This document shows, in pieces, positions 41,496 to 64,000 of a DNA stretch of 64,000 nucleotides. Every line of letters begins with the position of its first letter. The first letter of the stretch is position 1. The notes under the pieces are model-generated. The model ran no database searches and was not told where the DNA came from. It saw only the letters and a list, made by a program, of their open reading frames with translations. The stretch is taken from positions 1,584 to 65,583 of the forward strand of contig QPMI01000406.1 in the NCBI GenBank assembly GCA_004431415.1, read 5' to 3'. This DNA is from Cyanophora paradoxa CCMP329. Its lineage: Eukaryota > Plantae > Glaucophyta. Position numbers and translations under genes: made by a program.

Positions 41496-41502
41496 TCTTT
41501 AT

Positions 41503-42498
41503 TTAGATTGTAGAAATTAATTCACCACTCCATTGACAATTCGAAGCATTAAGTCCTCCATAAACAAGATAAAGTTTAGCTGTATCACCAGCAGACATTA
41601 CTACTGAAATGTTTAAACAGAGGGGTCTAATAGAAACCACATTTAATGCCGATGCAACTGCAATACAAAATTTACCATTTGGGGCTGCATTATTTATTCG
41701 TAGATGAACAAGCGAAAGTAAATTATCTTCTTTTGTCGCGCCTGTAAAAATGAAATTGTAGTGACCAGATACAGGAGCTGTGAAAACACCATTCGAAGTA
41801 TCAATATGATTTCCATTGTTTAACCATACCTCTCCATACGAGGTTATATATATTCCTGAGGTAGTTGATAGGGTTGTGGAGATTCCAACACAAAACCGTG
41901 GATGGTTAGGAGTAGCAAGGTAAGAATCCGTTCCATTGATAGAAAGACCTTTCCAGTTGTAAGTTCCAGCGACTGCATTCGCTGTTGAATTGGTGGAAGT
42001 TTTCACAAATGTAGAAGCGATATTCTCATTATTTCGCTTGATTACTAATTCTGTATTGCCCCCAGAATCAATAGTAGTCGTTTTAACTGTCCCAAAAGAT
42101 CCAGCTGTAAGACTTCCAGTTATTGTCGCACTCCCATTCACCCCCAAGCCAGTCCCGATCCAGGCACCACCACTAACTACTTGAAAAGCCGCTGATTTCC
42201 TATCAGCCGGATTAAAAGCTGTTTTATAATCCGCTTGACCTTCATATAGATTATCTTTGGTGATTAGATCCCCTGTTTTTGCGGGTCGATTCGATACGAT
42301 CAGTTCAGTAGCTTTGACGATTCCACCAGCCTTGTCGGCTCTGAGTTCTTTGACTCTGAGTATGGAGGTCTCATTGAAAGAATCGGTTTTCGCTGTCTCA
42401 GTCGAAGGGAATGACTCGCTTAGATCATATACAGTGTGTTGCACGTTGTGGACAGCACTGGCTGATAAGGAAAACACAGGGGTAAACACAGTCGACAT
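41503..42498 (-). CDS. Fibre-like protein with C-terminal C1q/TNF-like trimeric head domain
   Basis: PRFCV...VWLNNGNHIDTSNGVFTAPVSGHYNF...MSAGDTAKLY...WSGELI follows the C1q consensus. The N-terminal AFQVVSGGAWIGTGLGVNG segment is fibre-shaft-like. Confidence 0.85.
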   Translation of the reverse strand: MSTVFTPVFSLSASAVHNVQHTVYDLSESFPSTETAKTDSFNETSILRVKELRADKAGGIVKATELIVSNRPAKTGDLITKDNLYEGQADYKTAFNPADRKSAAFQVVSGGAWIGTGLGVNGSATITGSLTAGSFGTVKTTTIDSGGNTELVIKRNNENIASTFVKTSTNSTANAVAGTYNWKGLSINGTDSYLATPNHPRFCVGISTTLSTTSGIYITSYGEVWLNNGNHIDTSNGVFTAPVSGHYNFIFTGATKEDNLLSLVHLRINNAAPNGKFCIAVASALNVVSIRPLCLNISVVMSAGDTAKLYLVYGGLNASNCQWSGELISTI

Positions 42499-42553
42499 CT
42501 TTTGATTATTCTTTATTATTACGTGAGAATATTATTATTATTACGTGAGAATA

Positions 42554-45500: not shown

Positions 45501-46090
45501 GTGAGTTCAATTGGTGAGAAATCACCCGAAAGGCGATTTTCAGAGGTGAAATACATGAGATTATGGCTGTTAGGTAAATCGCGATCGAGTCTGCAAATCG
45601 GGGTGTTGTCGCCTAATATAAATTCGGCGCCTGTATGCACGACCGGATTTCTTTGGATATACATATTGGATGCACCTATTACAGGTGCTACAATGGGCAC
45701 ATCTGAACATACAAGGTTGCAAGTGATGGAGAAAATGGTTTTAGGGGCGAATAGATTGCAATCAAAGGTCACAGTAGCTGGATCAATAGTAGGATCGACG
45801 TTTGAACAGATCTGAAACATCCACCCACCCACACAGTTGCAATTAAGATTTCGAAAGACTGTTCCCGCCATTGCATCCACATAGCCAATCCCATTTGCTA
45901 TGTCATATATGTGACCAAACTCGTAACCAAAAATGTCATTCCACAGGTTGGAAGCCATAGCTCCCATCACATACCCTTTTAGATCTACTATCAGGTCATT
46001 GGATTCACTGGGTATATTGGCATGGGTTATATAAAAATTATTATCCAATACCGCATTCTTTATTGTCGTTTCTACTATGGGTTCAGTCAT
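42554..46090 (-). CDS. 1178-aa phage-type tail-fibre protein with HTHTKSEITDF repeats and a C-terminal H-type-lectin/gp53-like domain
   Basis: Intact ORF with many H-x-H-x-K-x-[DEQN]-I-T-D-F and HxWxxIxNxPxTFPP repeats, SNIYA repeats and YLPLTGGT motifs. The C-terminus reads IQTG...VTFPKAFAEAPEVV...STTTTFT...SYIATG. Confidence 0.9.
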   Translation of the reverse strand: MTEPIVETTIKNAVLDNNFYITHANIPSESNDLIVDLKGYVMGAMASNLWNDIFGYEFGHIYDIANGIGYVDAMAGTVFRNLNCNCVGGWMFQICSNVDPTIDPATVTFDCNLFAPKTIFSITCNLVCSDVPIVAPVIGASNMYIQRNPVVHTGAEFILGDNTPICRLDRDLPNSHNLMYFTSENRLSGDFSPIELTIPKQKVSYKELTDVPLTFPPSSHEHLWEHITNRPLTFPPDPHTHDYLSLKGGVISSNLTISSNLTVTSNIYASNIYASNIYSSNLWASNINGSNVIVDYLTVKIEANLPNHPTSNVVLDWLAKQKHTKADITDFDHTHTKDQITDFAHKHLWEDITNPPSTFPPGKHTHDYSEITNSNHRHPWEEIDEQPVFAQLNAIGNVFNGVTLYQSINTPERLFLNDHYVNLNGTFTGETGTPMVGTLAVRLPRDPIVNGVYSGDFNVGVNDTFPSIYVTNYHPGEIGQEADFSAAIQVNVTDQSAYDGARPKIVFTREKVVNYLPVVGQPTDDHGKCEIAWIKTTTGGALEVNQRMAAKNLHNTTLSGVVTDDYLESKNYVDDTELAAILEDYVTDTELTSALGDYLPLTGGTLTGDVHAPNFFVDTPNDQTFPVVHLGAEYVLDPNTPFSRLELPNVHKHFWEHIVNPPSTYPPDSHDHDYLPLTGGTIAGDVHASNFFVTTPNDQTFPVVHLGAEYVLDPNTPISRIELPNVHNVRPLTFPPDPHTHTKSEITDFSHTHTKSEITDFAHTHTKSQITDFPTFATVATTGNYDDLINTPTYTSPTDFDATSGISTDRTGDWRDYVGQPLVGDTSTWANTWIDGDDDCSSCKMYWTVPTDMKSCYIYYTCQYDSRYFNVVGIEPSNNTYIRLRVNAYAPAINPKRDFKQFVGINCEGLTKVGVHGQKGRIYLPGPITVGWSKNPAVTSHSGYCHWDNIFGKPTASTSVGPHSHSKADITDFAHSHTKANITDFAHTHTKSEITDFPTLDPFVANTITANNTMYVGSGQIYQPNAPLYLEQWFFHNSANIYDKTLLCRGNAYARAYYAMDETDNTKIAKLVSEQRVNKDQYIQTGKFSKSLTITGPGHWGFPQVVTFPKAFAEAPEVVLNLIQGYNGGSYVLVYGVTSSTTTTFTIHATISANREYNESIGLFHYQMSYIATGKMVA

Positions 46091-46127
46091 TATACTCTAT
46101 TATGGAATACTACAAAAATTAAGGTTG

Positions 46128-49100
46128 TTACATAACGTTTGGAACATGTTCATATATTCTCCCTTCTCGCTGTGCCATTTCCGCCATAAAGTCTCTATCA
46201 TTGTTCATCGTTTGCTCTGCCAATTCTTGTGCTCGTGATTTTTTGGGTGCTGCCCTATTTGCTGGTGGTCGGTCAGTCCTCACAACACTAAGACCATGCC
46301 CCTCGGCTGATCTCACCTCTAAGCCCACATCTCCTTCGGCTGTTTGGGTCACATTAAGCTCTGGTGTGGAGTATTTATTACCTGCTCCTGCAATGGTTCT
46401 GTCTATGCATGCACAACACAAAGCTCGGAATTTGTATGCAAGCACAAGCCCAAGAGCACCGAGAATCGGCAAGAGAATCATAAGCACTAACGTTCCTGGA
46501 TCTGTTCCCGGTGCCCCGACTGGATTTGTAGGATTCGTGGGATTATTAGGTGGTGTGTTTGGATCTGGATTAGTTGTAGGGGGATCTTGTGAATCGGGAT
46601 CTGGGTTAGGCTGGTTCGGATTTGGATCGTTTGGTGGCGGTTCCGTCGACCCTGCTAATGAGGTTGGCGCTGTGTATGCATTCGCAAACACGATTGGAGC
46701 CGTCGCTGGATTTCCTGTGGAGGATCCTGAGATTGCACCATAGGTATCTGCGAGATACTTGTATAATTCCTGTGTCACAGGTGGATTGCTCACAGATCGA
46801 CACACCCAAATATTGCATGTGGTATCATATACTGTATCCCTGATAAAAGGCGGTAGAGCCGTCCCACTGAATGACTCAAAGAGTCCATTTCGCGATAGCA
46901 ACCTATGTCCTGTATCACAATTTCCACCCTCAAAATATTTGGTAGCCGAAATCGCACCTTGCACATAAATATTGCATGTCGAATGCAATCCAATGTTATT
47001 TAGGTTAGGAGTGTATCTGTCATCAAGCCGGACAGTGCACACCCATGGGGAAGCGGTTTTTATATATTTCTTATCGCCCACCTCGATTACATCTGTATTT
47101 GGGTGGCTGTCAAGCTGAGTCCAAACAGCATCATACCTGAAAGTGTAATAAACTAAGAGACCATCAGTAGAGGATGTGAAAGCAAAGAAGGTCATAAAGT
47201 CCGTGGATCCAAAGAAGTCAGCATTGGTCGATGTTAGGGTGACTCTGGGATAGCTCATGTTGACAGTCTCAGAAGGATATGGAATATATGAGGTGTAATT
47301 ACGATTGAAAAGATAATAGTGAAATCCATCTGAGACATTCGAGTGAGTGGGCAAGGTGACTGTTAAGGTCTTACTGCGATCCTCAAACGTTTTCTGTATG
47401 ACAATGTTGCAAGTATTAATATATCGAGAATCGAAAAAGTAATTATTTGTGACTCTATTATCGATCAAAGTCGCATTGGTTCCATTAAACACGAAATTCT
47501 GCCCATTGATCCTCGTAGTGTGAATGTCTGTAACATCGAGAGGATACCTTATTTTTAATCGATCTTCGGGGTCAAATCGCGGAATAGTTCCTGTTGCCTT
47601 CCAACTGATAGTAAAGGGAGGAGCAAGGGACACTGCTGGGATAACAGAGAGATTAAATTTCGAAAAATACAACCCAACAGGGTATGATGTCAGAGCATAT
47701 GTCACTGTTGCATTTCCTACAAGTGTAAAGCCGGTGGTTGTTATGTTAGTTGCAACAAATGGGGAGTAGCCGGCTGGTGCATTTTGAAGTGATGTAGCTG
47801 ACCCATCATTGACCACATACAAATTCGTGTCTGTTATTTCAATAGTAGGAGGGGAAACAAATGGTGTCTCAAATGTGAAATTAAAATTCGCTGGAACCCC
47901 TGCAAGATATCTATATGTTGTTGCTGATATCTCGGATGCCTGGAATACTTTGCTTCCACTCCGCACTACATTACTTGTGTCTTTCACATTGTGGTATGAG
48001 ATGCTGGGAGTTGGGGAGAGCACCAACGAAATAGCATCTGGTAAATCAGACTTTGTTATATACAGTTCTCTGAGAAACTCCTTTCTAAAAGGGGCGGTCA
48101 GTTCTCCAATAGTAGCCGATGATCCTGCGACCACAATATTACAGGTGTTTGCACTCAAAGAGTAAACTGTGTTCCACCTTAAAGAATTCGCCCCAAGATC
48201 GAAATTCTGTGAGAAGGGCACGATATTGCTACCTTGTAAATCTCGGTAAACCTTTACTCTGGGTTTGCTATCGAATACAGGGCTAATGTAATTGATGTTA
48301 AGAGTGAAACTAATAGTAGCTTCGGAACTCAATGAGTTGTTTCGGATGATAAGTAAATTGTATGTCTCGTTAATGACAAACGAAACCTGAAACCCTGTGG
48401 AGGTGACATTTTGGATAAATGCTTTATTCGATTCATTATTGTTATAGATAGGATTATAATAAGTAGTGTGATCCACCAATGAAACAGTGGGTATAGTCGT
48501 CTCGAAACCTGTGACACCCAACTGATCCCAAGTGAATGTATATGTAGGTTTGCCTACATAAGAGACATAGACCCCATTTGCGAGCTGCTGAGGGTATCCC
48601 TCGACAGTGTAGGTCTCAGTTTGCGAAACCGAGCGGGAAAGGTTACTATTATAGTCGGTGTAGCTGATCAGTGCATTACCATTGGTAAGAATCTGATTAG
48701 GTCGGAGTGAGTGATTTAATGGAAGGATTAAATTGGAGGCAAACATGGAAACTCCATGCACCTCTGACCATCTCAGATTCGATAAACCAACTCGGTATGT
48801 GTTGTCAGTCGCGGGTATATGTTCCTTTTCGACAGAATATGGGCTAAGGTAATTGCAAGCGCTCCATCTGCTGCAAACAGAGCATTAATTTCTGATTGCA
48901 AAGCCGCGATTTCGGTTGTGTGGGTCGTGAGGGTTCCATCCTGGCTGGAATCTTTGGTGTTCTTGCTCCTTTCAAACTCCAAAAACGCCTTTACGATGTC
49001 CTTGCCTAAAAGATCGTTTATATTGTCTCTGGTTATGTGAACATGGTCTGTTCTCAGTGCCTGTTTCTCTGTGGTAAAAGCCGGAATTTCTTCTGCAAAT

Positions 49101-49849
49101 GATATAGTCGTTTTATCAAGTGCTAAGGATCTCACATTCGGAGCATTGGCGCCAATTATATCGACAACGTTCCCATTTTCGACAATTTCTAAGGTCGGTT
49201 TCGCGGGGTCTAATGTGAAAACACCCTCTGTTATCTGGGGAACCGATTCGCTCTTCTGAATCACAAAGGATTCGATGTTTAGGTTACAGGTTGCGACATT
49301 GGTGGCGAAAAACGACTCGGAGTTGAGCGAGTTTACATTTAGGGTATCCGTAGTGATGTTACTTGCTGTAATGTTACTCGTCGTAAGATTACCTGCTGAG
49401 AGATCATGGACGACCTCTACCTTTGTTTTCCGTGTGGATACTCCCGCTATAAGTGTGCTATTATCCACGATTCTCATAGCTGCATTTTGGAAACCGCTCT
49501 CATCTTGAATGAAGAAGTTTAAGCGACCTCTATCGAATGCTTTTGGGATGTTCCTGCGATTATATCGCACCGTTTTCGGTAGCTGGCGGGTTGCCTGAAT
49601 GCTGGCGACTCTGTTTCGTTCGTTATCATCAAGTAAAAAGTCGATTCCAAGTTTATGATCCCCTTTCTCGACGTTCATTAACTGCAAAGCTGCGGGTCTG
49701 CTCGGTGTCCACTGACTGGATCTTCGCGGTCTGCATTGTAATTTATTCTCAGAGACCCGCGAATTTCAGTGTTTACCTGATCAGTGTCCTCTATCTGAGT
49801 GGTCGAATTAATAACTCGTGCGTCTGGTCGCGGATTCAGGAACGACATC
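46128..49849 (-). CDS. Large (~1240-aa) fibre/spike-like protein with a C-terminal Pro/Asn linker and transmembrane helix, split by two frameshifts
   Basis: ORFs 49849-49678 (MSFLNP...), 49687-48773 and 48761-46128 join by frame changes near 49688 and ~48820. The alternative frame restores IPATDNTYRVGLSNLRWSEV, paralogous to the downstream NIVPFSQNFDLGANSLRWNTV. The TM segment LVLMILLPILGALGLVLAY is followed by LCCAC. Confidence 0.75.
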
Positions 49850-49891
49850 CTCTTTATAAACAAAGAAGATATATAAGAAGTATATAAGATA

Positions 49892-51385
49892 ATGAAGACC
49901 GTTTTATGTCTGAGTGGTGGAGGGTCGCGTGGAATAATCGAGGCTGCTATACTGGCACAGATTGAAGCCCAAACCGGTAAACGAATCCAACAGCTATTCG
50001 ACTGCTTTGCGGGAACATCCACAGGTGGATTAATCGCGCTCCTTTTGAATATCAAGGGAACCGATGGCGCCCCTAAATATACTGCTACTGATATTCTGGC
50101 GCTCTACAAAGCGAAACTACCGCTGATTTTCGCGAATCCACGAGTGCTTACATCGATTGTGCAACGCCCCAAGTATGAAGCAACTAACTTAGAAGCTGTG
50201 GCTCTGGAACTCTGCGGCTCAGCGACCATGGCGGATCTCTACAAACCCACCATCGTGACTGCGTTCGACACGGTTCAAATGTCCCCCGTTTTTATTTCAA
50301 GCAACGATGAAGACATTAATGGGATGCTTGTGCGCGATGCTGCAAGGGCTACCTCGGCTGCTCCGACCTATTTCGAGCCGAAACAAGTCACAGTCGCCGG
50401 AAGAACATACTGTTTAATTGATGGTTGCATGAGTGGAAATAATTCGCCCGGGGTTTGCGGCTACACATTTGCCCGCACTTTATTCGGAAACTCTTGCGAG
50501 GAGGAGCTTATCGTGGTCTCGATTACGGCGGGTCACGTCCAAGACGCCGATAAAGCAACCGCGGGATATTCGTATGACACCATGAAAAATTGGGGGATCG
50601 TGCAATGGATGCTAAGCGCCACAGGATCGCCAATTCTCAGCATGTTCTTAGAGTCGAGCGATCTAAACGCCCACGTAAAGCTACTGGAACTTTTACCCAG
50701 AAACGATGATCAGAATTACGATCGCTACTATAAGCTGAGCGTTCCTTTACCGAAAGATAAAATGACCCTCGATACAATCACAACGACGCACCTGCAATAT
50801 TTGGAAACGGAAGCGCTCGCCTTTGTTTCCGCACAGCAAACGTATTTTAATGCGATGTATTCAGTGCTGACAATGAATTTATCAGAGGGCGACGTTCCCA
50901 TAATTAATCTGTCCGGGTGCACAGATGTAAGCGCACCCCCGGAGTCCAACTGGGTGCCGCTCGATAATAGCGCTTTTATTGCGGAATTCGGGACAGCCTC
51001 CAATGCCCGCTGGTCGAATGCTACGGGGTGGGTGGGATTTACCAACCCGCCGCAAGGTAGTAGGTCGGGAGGCAATTATTTACGCATCGATTTTCCGCGT
51101 CTGTTCATGCTTTCCTCAATAAAAATGAAGCCGGCTGCGAATGGCAACTATATTAAAACGTTTGAGATCGATTACCAGCTCACTTCCGGAGTTTCTGCGC
51201 TTGTTACATACACAGAAGCCGGCGCGACGAGAGTGTTTACCAATGCAAATCAAATAGCCGGAAGTGCGGAGCCCGACGAACATTTCTTAGCGAACCCGAG
51301 ATCTGTGAGAACCCTCGTAATCTGGGTGCTCACGACGAACGTAGCTTCGGCATGCCGAATAGATTTCGAGGGCTACTACGTTTAA
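49892..51385 (+). CDS. Patatin-like phospholipase fused to a C-terminal discoidin (F5/8 type C)-like domain
   Basis: LSGGGSRG oxyanion motif, GTSTG nucleophile, ATSAAPTYF and a DGC catalytic Asp motif. The C-terminal YLRIDF...YIKTFEIDY...RIDFEG pattern is discoidin-like. Confidence 0.92.
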   Translation: MKTVLCLSGGGSRGIIEAAILAQIEAQTGKRIQQLFDCFAGTSTGGLIALLLNIKGTDGAPKYTATDILALYKAKLPLIFANPRVLTSIVQRPKYEATNLEAVALELCGSATMADLYKPTIVTAFDTVQMSPVFISSNDEDINGMLVRDAARATSAAPTYFEPKQVTVAGRTYCLIDGCMSGNNSPGVCGYTFARTLFGNSCEEELIVVSITAGHVQDADKATAGYSYDTMKNWGIVQWMLSATGSPILSMFLESSDLNAHVKLLELLPRNDDQNYDRYYKLSVPLPKDKMTLDTITTTHLQYLETEALAFVSAQQTYFNAMYSVLTMNLSEGDVPIINLSGCTDVSAPPESNWVPLDNSAFIAEFGTASNARWSNATGWVGFTNPPQGSRSGGNYLRIDFPRLFMLSSIKMKPAANGNYIKTFEIDYQLTSGVSALVTYTEAGATRVFTNANQIAGSAEPDEHFLANPRSVRTLVIWVLTTNVASACRIDFEGYYV

Positions 51386-52227
51386 TCCGTGATCACTTCG
51401 AGCTGAAACGAGTATGAGAGACCGTTTATATCCGCAACAGAGCCCCGCCATTTTCGAAGCGAAATTGTGAGACGATCTAAATGGAGTTGCGATGTGACAT
51501 TTACGAAAGGGATGCTTGCGCTCGGTTCGTGGTAAAAGGAATATCTACCAAAGTCCGAATTCATCTGAATTCGCAATAGATAGGAGTCGTCGACATTGTT
51601 CTGTCTACCTGTAACCGCTGCGAATTTGGTAAAAGGGCGGAGCTCTTCGATATCAAGGTAAATATATGGAATTGCATTAAAGTCGACCATTTTCGGGCAT
51701 ATAATCGCGTAGCGACTGGGGTAATCTCTGAGTGGAACCGGCACTGGTTCTGGTGTGCTGGTGTAAACCACTCCGGGTTCTATGCCGAGACAATCACAGA
51801 ACTCCTGGTCTGAGGACTCTAATGTAAACGGGCTATTCGGAGAAGAGAACACGAACCGGTTGGTAGACAGAGCGAGAGAATAGGAAACGGGGAAGAGACC
51901 GAGAGGATTAAAAGAACCGCCCGCAAATCCGAGTAAAGCATCACTGTTTAGAGCTCTCTCTTTTGGATATCGTTCGTTATCAGCATCGACGTAATAATAA
52001 TCGTTTACGCTGGGAATCGGTGCTATCATTTTGGATGCGGGGATTACTGTGGGCTCTTCGTTTAGAAGCGTTATAGTTATTGTCTGATCGGGCGGAACAA
52101 CATAAGAGCTATTGGGAATCTCAGCGGATAGCACACGAAATCGTCGCACATTATTAAGGCGCGTTTTCAAGTGCAGCACGCCATTTTCAAGGTCTCTACT
52201 GTCGCAATTTATTGTTATTCTTTTCAT
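51382..52227 (-). CDS. Penton/minor capsid-like protein 1 (single jelly roll)
   Basis: ITINCDSRD...NVRRFRVLSAEIPNS...YIYLDIEEL...LDRLTISLR...YSFQLEV fits the penton-like pattern of PLVs and giant viruses. Confidence 0.8.
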   Translation of the reverse strand: MKRITINCDSRDLENGVLHLKTRLNNVRRFRVLSAEIPNSSYVVPPDQTITITLLNEEPTVIPASKMIAPIPSVNDYYYVDADNERYPKERALNSDALLGFAGGSFNPLGLFPVSYSLALSTNRFVFSSPNSPFTLESSDQEFCDCLGIEPGVVYTSTPEPVPVPLRDYPSRYAIICPKMVDFNAIPYIYLDIEELRPFTKFAAVTGRQNNVDDSYLLRIQMNSDFGRYSFYHEPSASIPFVNVTSQLHLDRLTISLRKWRGSVADINGLSYSFQLEVITD

Positions 52228-53170: not shown

Positions 53171-53217
53171 GCCCTGTAAATTATTTTCTGATCCCAAAGA
53201 TAAGAGAAGAAACGCTC

Positions 53218-54528
53218 ATGGAGACTAACAGCCAATTCCAGCGCCCAACGCTGAAATCTATGCTCACCACGATGACTACAAGGATTATTTCCTAAACAAG
53301 TCGCTGGTCATTGGAACGTCCTCTGGCACTAAGCCACTTCGAGTTCTGGTCGCCCCCGACACTGAGCCACCCAGCGCTCTCGGCAACCGAGTTGTCTTCA
53401 AAATCCCCCGCTACCATTTCCTGAATGGTCTCGCGCTGCAACTCGATCTTAACCCGATCACCCTCACTGATCTCACGAATGGTGTCGCTGGAACTACTGG
53501 CTACCTTCGCGTTATTGGATCGCTAATTAAGCGCATTGAAATCTCTCACGCTTCATTCCGCTATGTTGTCCCAGAGGATTTCGTCACCCAGTATTTTCTA
53601 CTGATGACCGAACAGGGCGAACTCGATAAGAAACTTCGCTATGTGGGTGGTCTTGTCGGAACCGCTGGTAACACTGTCGGTGGAACCTACGAAATCGATT
53701 TACCCTCTCCTTTCGAGAAGGCGATGTTCCCACTTTGCGCTCTGAACTCTGAGATCGTGGTCGAAATCGAATTCAAGGCGATTGGTGATGGTATCATTGA
53801 GGATGTAAACAATGTTGGCAATATTTCGGTCGTAAACAGTGGTGCTTCCCTTCAAGTGCTGAAACCCCGCATTATCTGCAAGGTCGTAAATGCCGATGAG
53901 GCGGTTGTATCTGAGACCATTGCCCGTGTTAAATCGACTGGTATCGCGATCCCCTACAACGAAATCGGTTTCCTCCACACAGATTTCCAGCCGACCGCCT
54001 CCGGTTCGCGAGTCAATCTCTCGCAACTCACAGGTGCGGGTCTCATCCACACTCTCGTATTCTCTGTGCGCCAAAACGCGAAGACGAAGGTTAACAACGG
54101 AACTCTCTCGGTTCTGGCTCCTCGTGCACTCAGAACCAACGCCGTAAGCTTCTATGTGGAACTCAACAATAACCGCCTTTACTCCAATACTTCGCTTCCT
54201 CTCATGATTGCCGCGACCGAACTTCAAGATAAATATGATGCGGCGATTTTACCGAGAGCACAAGCTACCCGGCTCTCTCTGGCATTTACTTCGGTGCTGG
54301 AAACGGAAAGGCGTCGCTTCTCAACCAAGAGAACACGGGCTACATCGATGCCACAGGCACATCGGCGTTCGATCTGGTCTTCGAATTCAACGGTGTCACA
54401 GCCGGAGGAGTCGGTAATGAGGAGTGGTATGCGAGTGCCGCTTATCAGAAGATGCAAATTCAGTGCATTGCCCTCGCTCATAATATCATGATAATCGAGC
54501 TGATGGATTCGCAGAGTATCAGCATAGG
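53218..54528 (+). CDS. Double jelly-roll major capsid protein (frameshifted near ~53245, ~54240 and the 3' end)
   Basis: The joined frames give VVFKIPRYHFLNGLALQLDL...GSLIKRIEIS...IDLPSPF...FPLCALNSEIVVEIEF...TGYIDA...CIALAHNIMII (~430 aa). The gene lies between a penton-like gene and the ATPase. Confidence 0.85.
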
Positions 54529-54580
54529 ATTCTCATTACCACATTCAGTCTTATTTTTCTATTGTTTTTATAGTGAAAGA

Positions 54581-55426
54581 ATGCAAAAAGGGACGACGCC
54601 CATAGATCTCGAAGAATGGAACCCGAAACAGAGGGTGAAACTTCCCGCACGATTTCTCCTATTGGCGAAAACCAATTGTGGTAAATCGGTATTCTTAAAG
54701 TGGCTGATCAAAGAACTCGAAGACCAGATCTCGTATGTTCTGGTTTTTTGTCCTACGAGTTTCAACGGTTTCTGGGGACAAATTACAGATGAAGTGCATG
54801 ATACCTGGAAACCGGAATACGTAGAGTCGATCATAGAAGCCCGCAAAAAGGCTATCATTGCGGGTAAGAAACCAAAGAATATTCTTATCGTGCTCGACGA
54901 TTGTTTGGAGTCCGGAACTATCGATCTTTCGCGCGATCATTTGCTAAATAAATTGATGGCGCAAGGTCGTCATACGTTTTGTAGCGTCGCTTTAATATCG
55001 CAGAAATTAACAAAGCTGTCAACTATCATTCGCAGTAATGCGGAGTATATCATATTCCTCAGCTGGTCAAACATGCGAGAGTTCGAAGCATATCACGAGG
55101 AATTCGGCAACATGGATAAGGAGAGTTTCAAACGTATGTTCCAAGAGTTTTGTCATAGCTACCAAGCGATCATTCACGATAATACCGGGTATTCTGTGCG
55201 ATGGTGGGTCGAAAAAGCCGATATGATCGATGACCATCCGTTTACTAAATTCCACAAGCGGGCGGCTTTTGAAGAAAAGAAGCGCAAACAACAAGAGGAG
55301 CAAGCGACAAAACCGCCGCCTGTCAAAGATTCGACAACTGTCTGTCGAACTTTATCCAAATTTGAGCGTGAGCTTGAAGGTATCCCAAACTTTCGCAAAT
55401 TTCGCCTAAGAAAAAGAAAATGTTAA
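54581..55426 (+). CDS. A32-like FtsK/HerA DNA packaging ATPase
   Basis: Walker A AKTNCGKS, Walker B ILIVLDDC, QGRH arginine motif and ISQ...IRSN. The likely start is the ATG at 54581. Confidence 0.95.
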   Translation: MQKGTTPIDLEEWNPKQRVKLPARFLLLAKTNCGKSVFLKWLIKELEDQISYVLVFCPTSFNGFWGQITDEVHDTWKPEYVESIIEARKKAIIAGKKPKNILIVLDDCLESGTIDLSRDHLLNKLMAQGRHTFCSVALISQKLTKLSTIIRSNAEYIIFLSWSNMREFEAYHEEFGNMDKESFKRMFQEFCHSYQAIIHDNTGYSVRWWVEKADMIDDHPFTKFHKRAAFEEKKRKQQEEQATKPPPVKDSTTVCRTLSKFERELEGIPNFRKFRLRKRKC

Positions 55427-55448
55427 TCAAATGTAAGAGAAGATAATC

Positions 55449-56129
55449 ATGGTCTACCGAAAGAAGCCTCAAACCATTCAAACTGTCGCTTCTGGTAATC
55501 CTAATCGCGGACTTGAAGAGTCTGGATTAACGTCGGGTGGCGGTCTCGAAATGCCCGAATATCTTATAGACACTTCGCCAGAGAGGTCGCCAAGCAAGAG
55601 GCGATTATTGCGAGTGCCACCGCGGACAAGGGAAACCAAGATAGCGGTAAACGCCAAATGGACGATTTAGCTACTGTAAAACCACAGATTGGAGGCGGCT
55701 CTGTTGATGAAGCAACGACAAAGTAATTAAAGCGCAAGTTGTCGCAAGCCAGCACAAAACGCAAGACGTCCCGAAAGCCGCCGAAACTGAGCTCAAAAGC
55801 GCGGATCCTATCAAAAACACACGGTTCCTGTCGACGTTGTCATGAGCTTCGAAGAGAAAGTGCGAGACCTTGAAATGAAAGTCTCTAACTACGAGAAATG
55901 GATGCAAGATTATAACGAACGCAAGAAATTAAAGGGGCTCGTGAAGAAAGAGATCTCCAAACTCGGATTAAAGCAAAAAGTCGACGTAGAGGAGATTAAA
56001 AAGGAGGAAAAGACAGATGCGCAAGCCGTAACTCGACAGCAATCGGTTGCCCCGCAATATGCACATATTGTGCCGACCGCACCCGTGAATTATGCCGCAA
56101 TGCTCGGTGGTAAACGCCATATCCGCTAA
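55449..56129 (+). CDS. Small hypothetical viral protein(s): frameshifted 55449-55840 and coiled-coil 55842-56129
   Basis: ATG after an AT-rich leader and Lys/Glu-rich ORFs. I recognised no domain. Confidence 0.5.
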
Positions 56130-56333
56130 TGACTGTGAATATCCGCAAGGCAAAGCTGAACCCGCCCGTATTTAGAGCGGGTCTTTATGTGGACTCCCTT
56201 GCAATAGGGACAGGTCGGCTCCATAAACAGCATTATAAGTTCGACCAATTCGTAGGGGAACACACGAGCAAGTAAAGCCCTCATTCCCTTTTATTTTCTC
56301 CGATATTTAATACGTTGCGTCCTTGTAGGATCG

Positions 56334-56768
56334 ATGAATTTCATCACACAATGCATTGAAATGTTTCAGCTTCATGTCGTGTCTAATTGCCACAGTCCTT
56401 GCTGTGACACAACCGTAGAGGTTAATATTTCTGACGACGAGAATGGAGGTAGGCGCCTTTCTGTATATTCTAACCACAGCGACAATCACAACCACCCACG
56501 ATCTCGATCGCCCTCGCCTGTGCCCGCGGCTATGAGTTCTAATATCGAAACCGCTCAGATAGAGGACGTGCATGTAGAGCATATTAGAAGGCGCTCATGT
56601 CCTGAATTTGTAGAAGGTCATTTGCGCGCTGACTCCCCTTATCCGATGTATAGATTGGATCAAATGCCATTAGGCGACGATGAAAATGTAACGAACCCTT
56701 ATGTTTATCCTCAGCAACCTTATGTATATCCTCAGCAACAAGAAAGAACCGTCTGGAACGGTTATTGA
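56334..56768 (+). CDS. Hypothetical viral protein (144 aa) with RSRSPSP and PYVYPQQ repeats
   Basis: Intact ORF preceded by the shared TTATTTTCTCCG motif. Confidence 0.6.
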   Translation: MNFITQCIEMFQLHVVSNCHSPCCDTTVEVNISDDENGGRRLSVYSNHSDNHNHPRSRSPSPVPAAMSSNIETAQIEDVHVEHIRRRSCPEFVEGHLRADSPYPMYRLDQMPLGDDENVTNPYVYPQQPYVYPQQQERTVWNGY

Positions 56769-56870
56769 GCGGTGAATTTCGGTGGCGCTTGTATCGAGCC
56801 AAGGGCAAAAATGAAGGTTTCGGTAAAAGGTATATAAGGGCAAGGGAAATAATACAGAGTGACAAAAAAC

Positions 56871-56887
56871 TATTTTCTCCGGTTATA
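56871..56887 (+). promoter_or_regulatory. Shared viral upstream motif TATTTTCTCCGGTTATA
   Basis: The same core occurs at 56291, 57431 and 62719, with a variant at 53178, each shortly before an ATG. Confidence 0.7.
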
Positions 56888-56891
56888 GTAA

Positions 56892-57383
56892 ATGGCGAAA
56901 CCCAAGATTTCAAACCAAGAGGCAATGGCGGCACAGCAAGAAAAGCGCAGACCAGGGCGACCGAAGAAGGTGATCACAGAAGAGGAGAAAGCGGAGAGAT
57001 TAAGACTAAAACGCGAGAAAGATGCAGAGCGGCAGCGAAACAAGCATCAGAGACAAAAGCAAGAGCGATTAGCCGCCGGAGAGGCTACTATATTCACACC
57101 GGAACAGCTACAAAAGATCGCAATTCGTAAACAGCAGCGATACCAAGACGATGAAGAGTATCGGGAGAAAATCCGAGAGAAGGCACGTGAATACCAACGA
57201 AGGAAAAGAGCGGAACGCAAGCTGAATCCGCCCGCTAACCTCAGCCGCAAAAGCCCGCTGGAAGACCCCGAAAGCATGTCGTCGAGAACGCAAAAAATTC
57301 GTAGCGGAAAGTACCACACGATGCAAAAAATGATTAATTTTTTACCTCCATTTTATTCCCCGTATCGGTCAAAAAGCACTTAA
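56892..57383 (+). CDS. Basic coiled-coil protein with an AT-hook-like RRPGRPKK motif (putative DNA-binding)
   Basis: The ORF directly follows the shared upstream motif and has a GRP core and long K/R/E helices. The 3' end is possibly frameshifted. Confidence 0.7.
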   Translation: MAKPKISNQEAMAAQQEKRRPGRPKKVITEEEKAERLRLKREKDAERQRNKHQRQKQERLAAGEATIFTPEQLQKIAIRKQQRYQDDEEYREKIREKAREYQRRKRAERKLNPPANLSRKSPLEDPESMSSRTQKIRSGKYHTMQKMINFLPPFYSPYRSKST

Positions 57384-57430
57384 AGATTTGGCGACAAGGG
57401 TATGAAAAGGAGAATTTGGTAGATTGCGCC

Positions 57431-57452
57431 GAAATTATTTTCTCCGGTTATT
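57431..57452 (+). promoter_or_regulatory. Shared viral upstream motif GAAATTATTTTCTCCGGTTATT before the PolB gene
   Basis: An 18-nt exact match to the copy at ~62719; the ATG is at 57470. Confidence 0.75.
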
Positions 57453-57469
57453 TAAAAGAACTAATAGAG

Positions 57470-60400
57470 ATGCCGCGCGCAACCAACAGAATCGCTAACA
57501 ATGTTCGGGATGAAATTATCGGATACATTATGCAGGGATTGAGTCAGGATTTGCTAACCGAAGAACAGGCGCATTGGGCGATGCACAACACAATGAATCG
57601 GAAGCCCAAGCTCCAAACGCTGATCGACATTCGGATACTCTGAATGGCATCATTAATCCCGCGTTTTCCGCAGGGCAGAGCGGAAAGAAAGCGGCCGCTC
57701 GCACCCAAGTTAAATAGAAAAGCAAAAGCAAAAAGAACAAGAGGCGAAGCGTTTACAGCGCTTCGATCGGCAAACGAAACAGAAAACGGCGCGAAAAGAA
57801 GCGAAAACTCGAAGCGAAGCAGCAGAGAGGTAAACTAAAAGCGGTAGAGGATGCGATTAAACGCACTTTTCTCCGTCATCTTCGAACCTAATGTTCATGA
57901 GTCGTATGATGGGGACGAAATTCACGAGATGGAATCGAGGCGATGATCGATGGGCGACGAAGCGTGTCGAAGATGACGGAGCCGGTGCTATCCTGGCAAT
58001 CGCTATGCGTTTCTGGATGAGGAGCTAATGGACAGCATGCGATGCACCGCGATTATGAGCAAATTCACAGACTACACATTAAATCCAAACGCGTCTGAGT
58101 TCGAAGATATTATTGAGCTTCCCAAATCATCGACATCTAACGCTTGCGGCTACGATATGATCATCTCCACATGGGAGCGTCCATTAAGAAGTGTCAGGAG
58201 GCGCCAAAACCGCGATATACTGACTTAACTATGTCCTACGACGGTCTCTATAAATTCTTTCACGGTCGCGAACGCACACCTGGCGACTCTCTGGCTCTCA
58301 CGCTCCGCCATATCGAGAAATTCTGTAAGAGAATCAGACAGGCTTCCGCGTCTTTGATGTCGACGGAAAGTTAATACACAAATTCGCGGCGGAATCAATT
58401 AACAAAAACATCTTTCCCGCAATATTCACTTTATGATTCACAACAAGCACATCTATATATTCAACGATAACATCAAGTCGCTCGAAATGCGCATGGCAAA
58501 GATGGAGGTCGAAGAGCTCGATAATCATGTTCCTAAGTCGACTCTTCGTTAGCACTCTATAAATTCCGACGTGTCTTACTCACGATATCTTCGCGCACAC
58601 ATCCAAGGATTTGTTAAAGATCACGCAACTAAACTATCGCCCGACGAGCGCAGTTTCATCCGCATTCTTTATACTGGCGCGAAGGTCTGGAAGGTCTTCT
58701 ATTTACGTTCCTGAAAATGCGATATGAGCCCGCTGTGAAGCTAACACCATCGAAACAGATCGACAGCATCACATTCAAAGCCAATGGCTCGATGTTCTCT
58801 ATCAAAGATCCACGCACAACAGACCACTTTATTGAGCAAGATTTCGAACAGAGGAGTATTATAATAAGGTCTGTGAAATCGGAAGGGATTCCGGAGTCGC
58901 TTCTAAATGCGACGAATATCTCACATTACAGCCGAACATGCGCGAAATTCTCACGCACTACAAGCGATCCGCACTAAGTGGCTTTTCTATAGCCGAACCC
59001 GAAAGCCACCTACACAGCTGTCGATATGGCGAAGTGCTACCTTCGATACTGAAAGGCATGCAATATCTTCCGAAATACAATGTTTGATGACTTCGTTCCC
59101 TTTAAAGCGGGAAGCGATATTCTCGAATACGCGATCTACTACGTGCGTGTCGTTGCGTTTGAGAGAGAGCAAGCACTTTCGCGACGACGAGGATATTGAT
59201 TATGATGCCGCCATGTCTCGCAAGATTGATGGAATCGAAATTATACTGGATCGCGCATTTTCGTGAGTGGTCGCTGTTATAATTTCATGACAGGCTACAC
59301 TCTCTCCATGCATTGGGCGGACGTAAAGGACAAGATAGAGATTTCGCGGTCGCGGAGCCTTCGCATTTGGTGCCCAATACGTCGATCGCTGAGATGCAAA
59401 AGTGCTGTCAAGCGACATTCAAACCACAGATAAGAAGCACATTTTAGTGAAAGAGATCGGAATGCTCGGCAAATTCCAAGACTCGCAAACATCCACGAAA
59501 ATGTTCTACAACCGTGCCGAGGCTGAGAGGTTCGCCAAGAATGCGGAGGAACAGTAGAGGTGTTTACTTTCAATCCTAAGAATTCGAAACGTGTCAAACT
59601 CTTAGCGAATTCGAAGGTCACATCTATTTCGTTAAGATCAGCTCCCACCGCGAGCTCGTTAACGGATTCCTTCCTATCCACTTTCATATTTACGTCGTAC
59701 CGTGCTAATATGTTTGCGCAATACAAGCGCCTGACAGCGCGCGGCACAAGGTTGCCGGGATCAGAACGGACTGTCTATATATCGAAGTTCATGGACAAGT
59801 AAGAAAGAGTTCGACCGAAATGCGTTTGAGAACATGGGCAAATTCAGCTATATTCCGGGAAAAGATGCCCTGAGAATGCACTCCGCCACCACGGGTGTAA
59901 CTCTCGAATTTCAGGATCCCGAGACACTCATTAACCGGTTCTCGCTGAGGGACGAATTTAATCCGGAGTGCTTTAATTGGGTTGCGGAGCTCATAATCGT
60001 ATGCTTGTCCTTGCTGACATGCCCGGAAGTGGAAAGTCGACCTCGGTATTAATGTTTGCCTCTCAAAAGTCAAATTGCTTAGTATTTGCCCTATAACAAC
60101 AGTGCGCAGAGCTGAGGGACTCTCTCAAAGTCCGCGGAATCGAGAATATTACCGTTCGTACTTTGTATAATGTTCTCGGATCCGTGTCTCAAATGATCGA
60201 CCTACGAAGAGGCTATGAGCGAAAAAGACCAGAGGGCGTTGTCTCGAGTTCAGCCACATTATGTTCGACGAGATATTGCGTATTCTGTAAAGATCTCGCT
60301 AAGATCAAGTCGTTTATCGATCGCTATCCGGATATCAAATATTTGGCTAATGGCGATACCTATCAGAACGAACCGATTAATGATGAGCTATCGTTTCTGA

Positions 60401-61340
60401 TCGCAAGGGCTACTATAAGCGCGCTGTGCAGAGCATGTTCCCTAACGTCCTGAGTCTACGCATTAACAGCGGCACAAGAAGGAGACAGACGTGAATTAAT
60501 TCGGGCGATTAAAGAGGATCTCTTCGAGAACGGACTGAAGCCGCACAGATTATCTCGAAATACGGTTGCCGACAATTAATGATCTAACGCTATTCCCGAC
60601 GGCTACTTTGGCATCGCTTACAGAAACGAAATGACCTTAGCCTACAACAAACTGATGCACGATAGACGCAAAGTAAATATCCAACCGTAGAGGTCAATGG
60701 ATCAAATTCTACAAGGGTTTGGAAGTCGTTTGCGCAGGTATCTACGCATTTCGCGGTCTGAGGGAGTCTATAACGCATACACGAATTACACCTATCGAAT
60801 CACCAAATCACCAAGCAAATGGTCACATTAACTGACGTTTTCGATGGCGTCACGTTCGAGGTTCCGTGCGCGATGTTAGAACATTTTTCTCTCCCTTATG
60901 CAGGAACAGGTCATTCACGCAAGGTCTCACACTTGATTCGGGCATTGTCATTTGTGAGGCACGTTCCGCTATAACCACTCGCGAATGGTTCTATACGCTC
61001 TCACTCGTAACCGCGATCTGTCCACTGTGCTGATTTATACACGATTCACAAGTTCCAAGGAAAGAGCGACTACATCGAATATCTGAAAACGAAGATCCGC
61101 GGATATAAATGCCAGGATCAGCGTGCCGGGCGCGATTTCACGAGCGGATTATATTACGCCGGAGTGGATATTAGAGCGCAAGAAGCAACAGAAGGGCGCC
61201 TGTGCGATCTGTTCCTTCCGATTCGATTGAGCCGCAAGATCCGAATTATAGGCTCGTCGTGGATCGCATCAAATAAGCGCCCACATCTTAAAGACAATTG
61301 TCAACTCGCGCATCACGGGTGCAATTGCAGCAAAAAATAA
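57470..61340 (+). pseudogene. Family B DNA polymerase + SF1 (PIF1/RecD-like) helicase + HNH-like domain, probably one fused gene, heavily frameshifted
   Basis: PolB motif A AVDMAKCY (59017-59040), motif B-like KKHILVKEIGMLGK (~59432) and motif C IRTDCLY (~59760). Helicase ADMPGSGKST (~60013), HIMFDEI (~60255), GDTYQ (~60352), PYAGTGHS.QGLT (~60895) and WFYT.LTR (~60986). C-terminal CAIC...VDRI..K.PHLKDNCQL.H.GCN ends at stop 61340. Confidence 0.85.
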
Positions 61341-61483
61341 CAGGGTTAATTAGAAGAATGTCACGGATCGTCAGAAGGGTAGCGGGCGAGGAACGGAGAC
61401 CACCATTCTACTATCGCGGTTCCTGAACTGAGCAAGTCCCCAAAAAATCACAAAACGCCAAGCAAAATCAAATTTATTAGGAG

Positions 61484-62571
61484 ATGTTCCTTTTAGCATT
61501 GCTAACCCGTCCTCTAAGATCGTGCGACGCATGTATGACCGAAGACAGGTTTAAGAACCCGTCCGCGATATACGAAGAGCTGAGAAAAGAGGACAAGACC
61601 CTCACATTAAAGAAGTGCAAGATGTCGCAGCGAAACAAGAATTTATGCAGATCAACAAGAAGCCCCCGCACCGACCCAAACAGCTTTTATTCCCATCACA
61701 GCCCCGCCGTGGTGCTACCAAGCGATTCATCTTTTATCTTCATATGGCAGCTATAATTCCGGCTACATTGCAGTCCTTACTCTCATCGAGATGACAGCCG
61801 AAAAGCATATGCCAAGAAGTTAAAGAAAAGAGGGCGCAAGTGTTGCCGCCGCTTTTGCGGAGATGCTTACAGAGCTCCGGCTCGATGATTCGATTGGAGA
61901 CAGATAACGGCTCAGAATTCATCGCGAAGGAGTTTCAGGAGGTCGTTAAAAGCAATGGAATAGAGCACCGCTTTAAACAGGTCGGAGATCACACTTCGCT
62001 GGGAATAATGAATCGCTTTCATTTGACCTAAAAACGATGATAAACAATTACTGTGTCGCATATAATACTGTGCGGTTTATGGACAAGCTGGACGACTTCG
62101 TTTTCAATTATAATAACACCATTCACAGAACCATAGGAATGAAACCCGCGATGTTAAGCTTTCTGATATGGAGCGATCCGAGCGGCTATTATTTCAAGGA
62201 AGAACACAATCGTAAAGGATATATTCAGCGACTTTAAGCCGGGTTCCACGTCGTGTATTATTGCCAAGATCAAAGTTTGATAAAGGAGCACCAAAGGTAT
62301 AGCCGAGAGGTCTACAAAATTGCGGGAAGGAGAGGAAACGCGATAGAGGTGCAAGATGCAGCGGGAACGTAATGCCGAAGCTTTTTAAGCCGCACGAATT
62401 GCAATCATTACAGAGGTCGAGCTGTGGTGGCCATCAGGCAACGCTATTTTAGCGGCTGATGTAGAGGCAGCTTCGATCCGGCAGGTTCAAAAAGAAGGCA
62501 TAGATGTCGCCGCAAGTGTTCCAAAGGCGCATTATTGGAAGATCGCGCAGAAAAGACAAAGAGGGCGCTGA
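61484..62571 (+). pseudogene. Retroviral-type (rve) integrase, frameshifted
   Basis: YQAD (first Asp), SRKAYA, LETDNGSEF (second Asp), GIMNRFHLT, YNNTIHRTIGMKPA, then an FDKG..YSREVYKI C-terminal segment typical of Polinton integrases. Confidence 0.9.
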
Positions 62572-62718
62572 GAGAGCTCGCTAAATTAACGATCGCGGAA
62601 CTGAGAAGCTCTCAGAGGTAAACAGTCAGCGGTGGTATAAATCATTCAAGAATCAGAGCGCAAGCTACACAGCCCCTACTACGCGCATTCTTCGGTCATC
62701 TCGTTCATAACAAACCCC

Positions 62719-62745
62719 GAAATTATTTTCTCCGGTAAATATAAA
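62719..62745 (+). promoter_or_regulatory. Shared viral upstream motif GAAATTATTTTCTCCGGTAAATATAAA before the DUF5710 gene
   Basis: Matches the 57431 copy; the ATG is at 62750. Confidence 0.75.
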
Positions 62746-62749
62746 AGAG

Positions 62750-63060
62750 ATGGAGGGTGAAAAGCATTTGTTGATATTCCGTTGATAAAAAAGACGTTGC
62801 GAAATCCCTCGGTGGAAAGTGGGATCGTGAGAATTCATGCTGGTATGTCATGAAGAAAGATCACCCTATGCTCTCAGTTTCAAAACTCTAAGTATGAGCA
62901 AGTGTATCAAAGAAACGTGAAGGTTTACCTCGATATTCCTTATGAATTTAAGGATCAAGCGAAGGCTGAGAAAGCCCGCTGGGATCCCGTTATGAAATCC
63001 TGGTATGTCATGGGTCTCGATCACCCGCTAATGGGCAAGTTTCCGATCAAGGAGCATTAA
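62750..63060 (+). CDS. Tandem DUF5710-like domain protein (frameshifted)
   Basis: Two copies: FVDIP..KKDVAKSLGGKWDRENSCWYV and VYLDIPYEFKDQAKAEKARWDPVMKSWYV. The gene is not in the ORF track because of indels. Confidence 0.8.
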
Positions 63061-63084
63061 ATATATCTGTCGTTTTTTCATTTT

Positions 63085-63474
63085 TTATGAAATTGGGAAC
63101 CTTTGCTCGACCTGTAAGTCCCACTTTCGAACTTTCAGCCTTTCCTGTATGAGTTCGTTAATGTCCCGTGCTATACCCATTGTCTTCGCTTCGGCATTTG
63201 AGCCGCATGTAAAGATATCGATCGCTAATAGCCCCTGGTCGCTATAAGAGTGAGCTGTGGCATGCGACTCATCTAATAGAAAGCCAATCGCGAAACCGGG
63301 AGGGGAAATAGAGCCATCGAAAATGCAGTGTGCTGGTGCACGATGCGCATATTGCGATCTGTGATATATTGCGATAGGTTCGCTGTGATCCACTCGGCGC
63401 ATGCCTCCGGGGACTCGTAACGGGTCGGTTATATAGTCGAGCATAACGTGGTAGCCGCGGTATCGGGAATCCAT
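63085..63474 (-). CDS. speD: Pyruvoyl-dependent S-adenosylmethionine decarboxylase family proenzyme (prokaryotic class 1B, SpeD/SpeH-like)
   Basis: GYHVMLD...F....PPGF....LLDESHATAHSY...G.LAIDIFTCG, with the conserved E-S-H self-cleavage site and TCG motif. Confidence 0.9.
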   Translation of the reverse strand: MDSRYRGYHVMLDYITDPLRVPGGMRRVDHSEPIAIYHRSQYAHRAPAHCIFDGSISPPGFAIGFLLDESHATAHSYSDQGLLAIDIFTCGSNAEAKTMGIARDINELIQERLKVRKWDLQVEQRFPIS

Positions 63475-63851
63475 TATTATTTAAGTCGATATTTTTGTGA
63501 GCTATGTGGTTTCGTAGCCGCCAAATCGCGCCCTTTGCGAATCAGACCGCGCCACTTCGTAGTAGTGTAGAACTACTCTATACGCGCGCGATGCAAAGTA
63601 TGACTAGTGGAGCCCTCCGGGAACGCGCGCCGGCGCTCAGAATGTAGCGGACACCTCCGTTTTCGGGCACTTGTGCAGAAATCGAGGTCGCTCTTCGCTC
63701 CACGGTGGGCTAAGCTAGTCAAGCTAACCATCATGCCCGGAATCAAGTTGTGAGCACATAGCAATTGAGAGCGCGCCGAGATCGGCTTCCTGTCCAAAGT
63801 TATGCGGAAACGAAAGGGGGTCTCCGCGAAGTCGCGATCGCGATGTTATCG

Positions 63852-63890
63852 AGTCGGGACTCGGACTCGGGACTCGGACTCGGGACTCCG
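63852..63890. repeat. Short tandem repeat (GGGACTC/GGACTC)n
   Basis: AGTCGGGACTCGGACTCGGGACTCGGACTCGGGACTCCGGG is visible directly. Confidence 0.8.
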
Positions 63891-64000
63891 GGAAGTTGGC
63901 AATCGGTCAGTCACTGGTCATGATCAGTCATATATATATGCTACTGGTCAGTCAAGTTTTGGTGTCGCGATCGCTTGTCGTTAAATCGACAAGTAATGGC

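Follow-up and report, generated by a model that had tools for sequence, protein, structure and literature searches.

What does a short minus-strand open reading frame (ORF) in the genome of the glaucophyte Cyanophora paradoxa CCMP329 encode, what kind of element carries it, and on which substrate would its product act? We examined these questions in a window of 64,000 nucleotides—that is, the whole stretch of DNA analysed. The ORF is a real gene, and it belongs to the class 1b S-adenosylmethionine decarboxylase (AdoMetDC, or SpeD) family of pyruvoyl decarboxylases. Its main features are as follows:

63085–63474, minus strand: SpeD-family (class 1b AdoMetDC-like) ORF, 129 aa as assembled and 130 aa in sibling copies
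63262–63270, minus strand: codons of E69-S70-H71, the predicted site of self-cleavage, where Ser70 would give rise to the pyruvoyl group
63205–63252, minus strand: segment from the H75 codon (63252–63250) to the C90 codon (63207–63205), two further catalytic residues
63328–63416, minus strand: out-of-frame stretch within the ORF, the true reading lying in a neighbouring frame

The Pfam model AdoMet_dc (PF02675) scored 37.9 bits against the ORF (cut-off, 25 bits), the match being restricted to residues 56–122 because the frame is lost in the middle of the ORF; the solved structures 2III (A. aeolicus) and 1TLU/1VR7 (T. maritima) could be matched by sequence to residues 57–97 only. The catalytic residues Ser70, His75 and Cys90—the last within a T89-C90-G91 motif encoded around 63207–63205—are spaced as S63, H68 and C83, the catalytic residues named for T. 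maritima in PMC10407285 (His at +5 and Cys at +20 from Ser). Moreover, E69, S70, H71, H75 and C90 were invariant in two alignments, of 13 and 17 sequences. From a structural perspective, the predicted model of P0001, a relative 44% identical to the window protein, reached a pLDDT of 95.3 and gave TM-scores of 0.70–0.80 against the AdoMetDC structures of A. aeolicus and T. maritima, with values of 0.76/0.80 and a root-mean-square deviation of 2.5 Å for 2III. Judged on this modelled relative rather than on the window protein itself, the gene is predicted to specify the AdoMetDC-like α/β sandwich fold; the same chemistry would therefore be expected, leaving the substrate alone in question.

The first-pass annotation, made from the letters of the DNA, had suspected that the middle of the ORF was mis-framed, and rightly so. 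Residues ~20–50 align with nothing in the family, and another frame on the same strand holds a stretch that aligns with the family's conserved N-terminal helix. Against a profile of 87 relatives, the score was 94.4 bits for the ORF and rose to 117.5 bits once the two frame breaks were bridged with X, the alternative frame alone corresponding to profile positions 23–48.

As for the carrier, GC content is 60–80% from position 1 to about 39400 and about 40–50% from about 40300 to 63500, and the low-GC tract contains the following features:

40300–63496: low-GC virus-like island, ~23 kb, about 40–50% GC within a host flank of 60–80% GC; ends approximate
53229–54491, plus strand: major capsid protein (double jelly-roll), a 420-codon open frame whose last part continues in another frame
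54452–55426, plus strand: A32-type packaging ATPase (PF04665, 40.7 bits against a cut-off of 22.8)
61795–62234, plus strand: fragments of an rve-type integrase gene (PF00665, 33.4 bits against a cut-off of 32.6)
62854–63060, plus strand: DUF5710-domain ORF (PF18974, 46 bits), the final portion of a gene interrupted by single-base gaps at 62878 and 62892
63061–63084: 24-bp spacer separating the convergent stop codons, lengthened in siblings by a single T behind 63072

These observations support a multi-copy, integrated polinton-like virus (PLV) as the carrier. The capsid frame found a single homologue in a word search (P0091, 64% identical to the product of 53229–54260), and P0091 in turn matched five proteins, itself included, among 1.84 billion cluster representatives, which indicates a poorly sampled virus lineage. 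The language-model neighbours of P0091 were viral clusters with Capsid_N or Capsid_NCLDV on 10–18% of their members, to be taken as a lead only. Its predicted model, of moderate confidence (pLDDT of 60.6, pTM of 0.66), matched the double jelly-roll capsids of PBCV-1 (Vp54, E = 2.6e-18), mavirus (7e-12) and Sputnik (8.5e-12), as well as NCLDV proteins in BFVD with E-values down to 5e-21. This match, together with the ATPase and integrase of the same element, supports its assignment to the PLVs. Other products of the low-GC tract include a C1q-like fibre protein, an 1178-aa repeat protein, an 877-aa protein and a patatin-like phospholipase. Single-protein scans of IMG/VR returned no match for the capsid, one weak giant-virus match for the ATPase and, for the SpeD-family ORF, one spurious 13-residue match only.

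The DUF5710 ORF ends on the plus strand at 63060 and is therefore convergent with the decarboxylase ORF on the minus strand, 24 bp away. One 339-nt contig from sibling copies crosses this junction, and the gene is thus linked to the element in the siblings too. The view of the gene as the cargo of a small integrated element, taken in the first-pass annotation, is borne out by the capsid, A32 ATPase and rve fragments in the same low-GC island; nor is the gene confined to one copy, as the siblings carry it.

We also made two side observations on the coding content of the island. The 1178-aa protein (42554–46090) contains many copies of a short His/Thr-rich peptide repeat with a DNA period of 36 nt and has a weak match to a phage-tail repeat; together with the C1q-like protein (41503–42498), it resembles a fibre module. 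Separately, a 29-nt motif occurs three times on the plus strand (56864–56892, 57429–57457 and 62717–62745; the copies being 76–100% alike), and at least its first and third copies stand just upstream of plus-strand ORFs, with none upstream of the decarboxylase gene. This motif may serve the element as a promoter.

The ends of the element were examined as well. We found no terminal inverted or direct repeats in 39000–64000, no match between the two flanks and no Rfam families in the same interval. The left border is marked by a sharp drop in GC content, from about 70–77% to about 40%. We further observed that this border (39430–40330) does not form one clean step, with an AT-rich segment of 400 bp followed by a 240-bp patch of ~70% GC (39850–40090) and then by the low-GC element. 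On the other side, the window stops 526 bp past the gene, and the right end of the element probably lies beyond it. Two features describe this side:

63496–63497: point of divergence among siblings, beyond which some copies run on into a different AT-rich sequence; distance upstream of the start codon, 22 bp
63497–64000: non-coding-looking stretch of 50–57% GC, with high summed depth to about 63935

The divergence appears as a loose end of 63 nt in two public sequencing runs (X2 and X9), and a contig of a third run (X1, 63450–63520) holds the window-like junction; the 30-letter alternative upstream sequence was not found elsewhere in the window. The sole tandem repeat to the right of the gene is a 7/13-bp repeat at 63854–63893.

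To place the gene among its relatives, we turned to viral, metagenomic and cellular collections. A word-based protein search yielded 76 relatives among 78 candidates, with a best identity of 44%. In IMG/VR, seven loci carry a relative: three PLV-like contigs (L005, L006 and L007), three giant-virus records (L002–L004) and one phage (L008). The PLV-like contigs—the kind of further viral carrier that the first-pass annotation had proposed looking for—include L005 (18.3 kb) and L007 (18.9 kb), each with a primase-helicase, and an A32 ATPase is encoded on L006 (4.3 kb) and L007. A 454-aa protein of L007 lay near virophage/Preplasmiviricota capsid clusters in a language-model look-up, again as a lead only. 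JGI and other metagenomes contributed 539 relatives among at least 597 candidate stretches, L096 and L097 being the nearest. The former (20.9 kb, GC content of 62%) encodes a 414-aa NCLDV-type capsid protein and a D5-like helicase, and the latter (8.8 kb, GC content of 57%) a chitosanase, an RNase III and a D5-like helicase; hence, the nearest relatives of the window gene are found on giant-virus-like contigs. BLAST of the element's proteins against the loci bearing a SpeD homologue gave nothing past a weak ATPase match.

In prokaryote genomes, 274 of 346 candidate stretches were relatives. The best 80 of these 274 bear 78 archaeal labels, mostly Poseidoniales/Marine Group II, and two bacterial ones; the archaeal relatives among them are 38–78% identical to the window protein over the best segment, and 39–50% where most of the protein aligns. 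Five archaeal loci of these best 80 were examined, and three have the gene order arginase, AdoMet_dc, deoxyhypusine-synthase-like (DS) gene, with DS adjacent to the homologue in four.

Several side observations on the relatives deserve mention. The two loci with bacterial labels (L059 and L088, in bins assigned to Rhodobiaceae and Salipiger) hold archaeal-type genes, placed among archaeal and archaeal-type metagenome sequences in a quick tree (53 of the 80 archaeal loci left out; since superseded), and are likely binning contamination. A DUF5754 gene stands beside the AdoMet_dc homologue, or at most two genes away, in L005 (5764–6045), L007 (3273–3551) and L003 (71–466), and the two genes may form a conserved pair in these two PLV-like contigs and one giant-virus bin. 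In a Marine Group II metagenome-assembled genome, AdoMet_dc and DS share one 431-codon frame (L017, 4007–5299), either as a fusion or through a missed stop. Long forms of 163–324 aa with N-terminal extensions (L172, 152–505; P0002, P0003, P0015 and P0038) fall in the same polytomy as the window gene, one of them bearing a hydrophobic leader as well as a long C-terminal tail; these long forms look like eukaryotic cellular or targeted versions.

The phylogeny was reconstructed from 69 rows and 127 columns. Of the 80 archaeal loci, 64 were left out, as were most of the metagenome proteins that were nearly identical. Four canonical phage SpeDs were separated from all other sequences at 99/96. The window protein fell in a six-row clade (95/90) with L097, L096 and P0001/P0077/P0078; L005 grouped with two giant-virus bins (100/95), and L006/L007 formed a further group (100/99). 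A clade of 59 rows (88/90) unites these viral groups, the long forms and the archaeal homologues as a polytomy, with the window protein inside. Given so short an alignment and such long viral branches, the deep order is uncertain. The phylogeny suggested in the first-pass annotation thus places the window gene in a clade with Marine Group II archaeal homologues, apart from the canonical SpeDs. In addition, the pairing of the window gene with L096/L097, and that of L005 with the giant-virus bins, suggest that small and giant viruses have exchanged genes.

Which substrate would the enzyme use? The NCBIfam equivalog model for AdoMetDC (TIGR03330, cut-off of 75.65 bits) gave 39.1 bits for the window ORF, i.e., below the cut-off, and was passed by none of nine intact clade members (42–67 bits) versus all three canonical phage SpeDs tested (96–129 bits). 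The core motif across the clade, window protein included, is LLDESH...H[CSA]Y[STA]x, versus LL[AS]ESH...HT[WY]PE in the four canonical proteins. In the window protein, the second half of this motif reads HSYSD, with Ser78 at the position where 4/4 canonical proteins have the proline of HT[WY]PE; the other core proline (PPGF) is kept. According to PMC10407285, a diagnostic proline is fully conserved in true AdoMetDCs and not conserved in the arginine enzymes, and we infer that it is the proline of HT[WY]PE. The same source describes one highly supported clade of homologues, drawn from Marine Group II/III and Poseidoniales archaea as well as from G. maris, Solirubrobacter, N. gaditana and T. minus, whose members were all active on arginine only; an E. 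coli speD deletion strain did not regain spermidine with the archaeal or Solirubrobacter homologues, and the archaeal genes were clustered with speB and speY, the genes for agmatinase and homospermidine synthase (PMC10407285). The window protein shares its clade with Poseidoniales homologues that have this speB-speDA-speY arrangement at three of the five loci, the assayed proteins themselves lying outside our tree. Taken together, the clade placement, the core motif and the TIGR03330 shortfall lead us to predict arginine decarboxylation, and we lean towards an arginine decarboxylase of the SpeDA type rather than a SAM decarboxylase.

Several points count against arginine. The nearest relatives of the window gene are giant-virus-like (L096 and L097) and not archaeal, the branch that joins them to the archaeal homologues has support of only 88/90 and leads to a polytomy, and the window copy itself is broken as assembled. 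The main counterweight is the AdoMetDC activity proven for two algal giant-virus homologues (PMC9992855), whose sequences are not part of the present tree. On this basis, the enzyme could be a true S-adenosylmethionine decarboxylase delivering decarboxylated SAM (dcSAM) to a host spermidine synthase, as SpeD of cyanophages and of some algal giant viruses does—an alternative that we regard as rather unlikely, although it is better placed than the others considered below. Besides the functional class 1b AdoMetDCs of those two Algavirales viruses (PMC9992855) and the giant-virus-like setting of the nearest relatives, it draws on the fact that AdoMetDC models are the best-scoring named families, that the P0001 model has the fold of solved AdoMetDC structures, and that HSYSD keeps an aromatic and an acidic residue at the W/Y and E places of HT[WY]PE. 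Against it stand the failure of the window protein and of 9/9 tested clade members to reach the TIGR03330 cut-off, the absence of the canonical proline and the membership of the clade, which includes archaeal homologues reported as arginine-specific and unable to rescue spermidine synthesis (PMC10407285). Moreover, spermidine synthase is absent both from the scanned ORFs of the element and from all three giant-virus records that hold a homologue. The scanned ORFs also lack agmatinase, agmatine deiminase and pyridoxal phosphate (PLP)-dependent decarboxylases, and in the three giant-virus records agmatine deiminase, arginase/agmatinase and PLP-dependent ornithine/arginine decarboxylases were each found in 0/3. 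With no polyamine partner gene in either setting, genomic context does not decide the substrate.

The first-pass annotation had read the gene as a SAM decarboxylase. The assignment to the SpeD family of pyruvoyl decarboxylases stands, given PF02675 and the Ser/His/Cys residues, but SAM is displaced as the likeliest substrate by the score of 39.1 bits for TIGR03330, the serine in place of proline and the archaeal clade. It had also mentioned a switch to arginine or ornithine, and the clade shared with Marine Group II homologues favours arginine of the two. Its further suggestion, that the enzyme drains SAM or produces dcSAM to blunt host methylation, found nothing in its support, and no observation made here bears on its idea of polyamines for genome condensation.

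The broken state of the window copy calls for separate attention. Sibling variation was read from Logan contigs of four public runs (X1, X2, X9 and X20) placed on the window, and the two frame breaks can be described as follows:

63416–63418: first frame break; siblings add single bases behind 63416 and behind 63418 (G/G or A/A)
63326–63328: second frame break; one extra base at 63326/63327 in sibling contigs (A, T or G)

At 63418, the extra base is present in all bridging depth (contigs of X1, X2, X9 and X20). Across the four runs, the sibling contigs differ in length from the window ORF at three places only, and the three added bases restore a single continuous frame of 130 codons. All alternative inserted letters fall at third codon positions, and all are synonymous. 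Among the substitutions within the ORF listed for the sibling contigs, 8 of 12 are synonymous versus 22% expected at random (P = 0.0012), the remaining four being conservative (E>D, E>K, R>Q and D>E); therefore, the protein is kept by purifying selection among the copies. Part of 62600–64000 is held by 20 of the 24 runs listed, from 17 studies (two entries name no study) and under one organism label, and 15 of the runs listed hold half or more of its sampled words. The interval 61500–63935 is tiled by hundreds of short contigs (329 for 2.5 kb in X1) whose word depths add up to large sums, as would be seen for a polymorphic, multi-copy repeat; the summed depth is not a copy number. Since three alternative letters occur at one site in each of X1, X2 and X9, at least three distinct copies must exist per run.

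Could the gene nonetheless be a dead relic, its frame breaks genuine and its copies fossils that retain the signature of past selection? The window copy does have two frame breaks, the adjoining capsid, integrase and DUF5710 genes are broken as well, and none of the listed runs holding 62600–64000 is on record as RNA; three low-depth contigs of X20, a run guessed to be RNA, lie on the stretch and were not counted toward expression. However, the gapped form of the window at 63418 appears in none of the four runs, the sibling contigs show no further length change inside the ORF, and all three gaps sit at sites that are polymorphic, at synonymous third positions, in the siblings: the window lacks exactly the polymorphic bases. 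Among the 13 length differences listed for 61500–64000, 12 are bases missing from the window, with 55 more differences beyond those listed. Gaps at polymorphic third positions, together with bases missing from the window, fit consensus error better than decay. The three single-base gaps are thus probably consensus errors of a collapsed repeat, and the relic is improbable. As a separate observation, the right half of the element (53200–64000) contains many single-base gaps relative to sibling contigs, with the capsid, integrase and DUF5710 genes also broken, and the long fibre-like ORFs at 41500–51400 are intact. Many of the gaps in the right half fall at polymorphic sites, which makes gene calls there unreliable.

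Finally, a substrate other than arginine and SAM, be it L-ornithine (as in the SpeDC enzymes) or something not yet known, is in keeping with the several substrate switches of this small fold (PMC9992855, PMC10407285) and with the long viral branches, but is very improbable, as the enzymes acting on ornithine make up a single, well-supported clade marked by four diagnostic residues, and the window protein groups with another clade, in which the members assayed were inactive on ornithine and lysine (PMC10407285).

Returning to arginine as the favoured substrate, a mechanism can be proposed. Self-cleavage of the proenzyme between Glu69 and Ser70 would yield chains of about 8 and 6.6 kDa and turn Ser70 into a pyruvoyl group at the new N-terminus, and His75 and Cys90 would serve catalysis as their counterparts do in T. 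maritima. The mature enzyme would then convert L-arginine to agmatine, which host enzymes (agmatine deiminase, N-carbamoylputrescine amidohydrolase or agmatinase would be needed) could turn into putrescine and, in turn, spermidine, raising the supply of polyamines for replication and translation while the element, or a helper giant virus, replicates. The arginine pathway of chloroviruses reaches the same end by other enzymes (PMC9992855).

How does the gene compare with known systems? That phages and giant viruses can encode polyamine enzymes is established, and polinton-like viruses are usually thought to carry little metabolism. The closest parallel is SpeDA, the pyruvoyl-dependent arginine decarboxylases derived from class 1b AdoMetDC and described from Marine Group II/Poseidoniales, Gimesia maris, Nannochloropsis gaditana and Tribonema minus (Li et al. 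2023, PMC10407285). The window protein resembles SpeDA in size (~128 aa), in its Ser/His/Cys triad, in the shared clade and in its sub-cut-off score for the AdoMetDC equivalog, and 33 of 42 residues of its catalytic core (79%, counted by eye) are identical to the archaeal homologue P0009. Unlike SpeDA, the gene resides on a virus-like element and not in a cell, without an agmatinase or homospermidine synthase neighbour, and overall identity to the archaeal homologues is limited to the 39–50% given above, with the assayed SpeDA proteins outside the tree. With the canonical class 1b AdoMetDCs of T. maritima, cyanophages and Bacillus phages it shares the fold (as judged on P0001), the ESH site and the Cys in TCG; in contrast, it departs from them in its core motif and in its TIGR03330 score (39 versus 96–129 bits for three phage SpeDs), with 27–29% identity where most of the protein aligns and up to 49% over short core pieces. 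Like known viral polyamine enzymes, it would be a single enzyme of bacterial or archaeal type, encoded by a eukaryotic virus and acting at an entry point into polyamine synthesis, but its carrier is a ~20-kb integrating, capsid-encoding element and not a giant virus or phage.

Full-text searches found no literature linking PLVs or virophages with this enzyme or with polyamines; the supplements of preprints, which fall outside such searches, might list such genes. In the available text of PMC9992855, a virophage paper is cited in the reference list only, and the accessible part of a 2026 preprint on marine PLVs describes auxiliary genes for nucleotide, sugar, lipid and redox metabolism with no mention of decarboxylases or polyamines. 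What is new here is, accordingly, a viral polyamine enzyme family in a new class of carrier, together with a corrected substrate assignment in which arginine is the moderately favoured choice.

This gene would extend viral polyamine enzymes to polinton-like viruses of ~20 kb. If the arginine assignment is true, the element contributes to the agmatine route a first step that needs no cofactor. The same family joins small viruses, giant viruses and eukaryote-like long forms, and intron-bearing copies of the arginine decarboxylase are already known in eukaryotic algae. Small integrating viruses and giant viruses might conceivably trade a PLP-independent arginine decarboxylase of the Marine Group II type, with the many host-integrated copies as a route into eukaryotic algae—an idea that we put forward as a doubtful one. 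Should the arginine assignment hold, the spread of this enzyme across domains, noted but unexplained in the literature, becomes directly testable.
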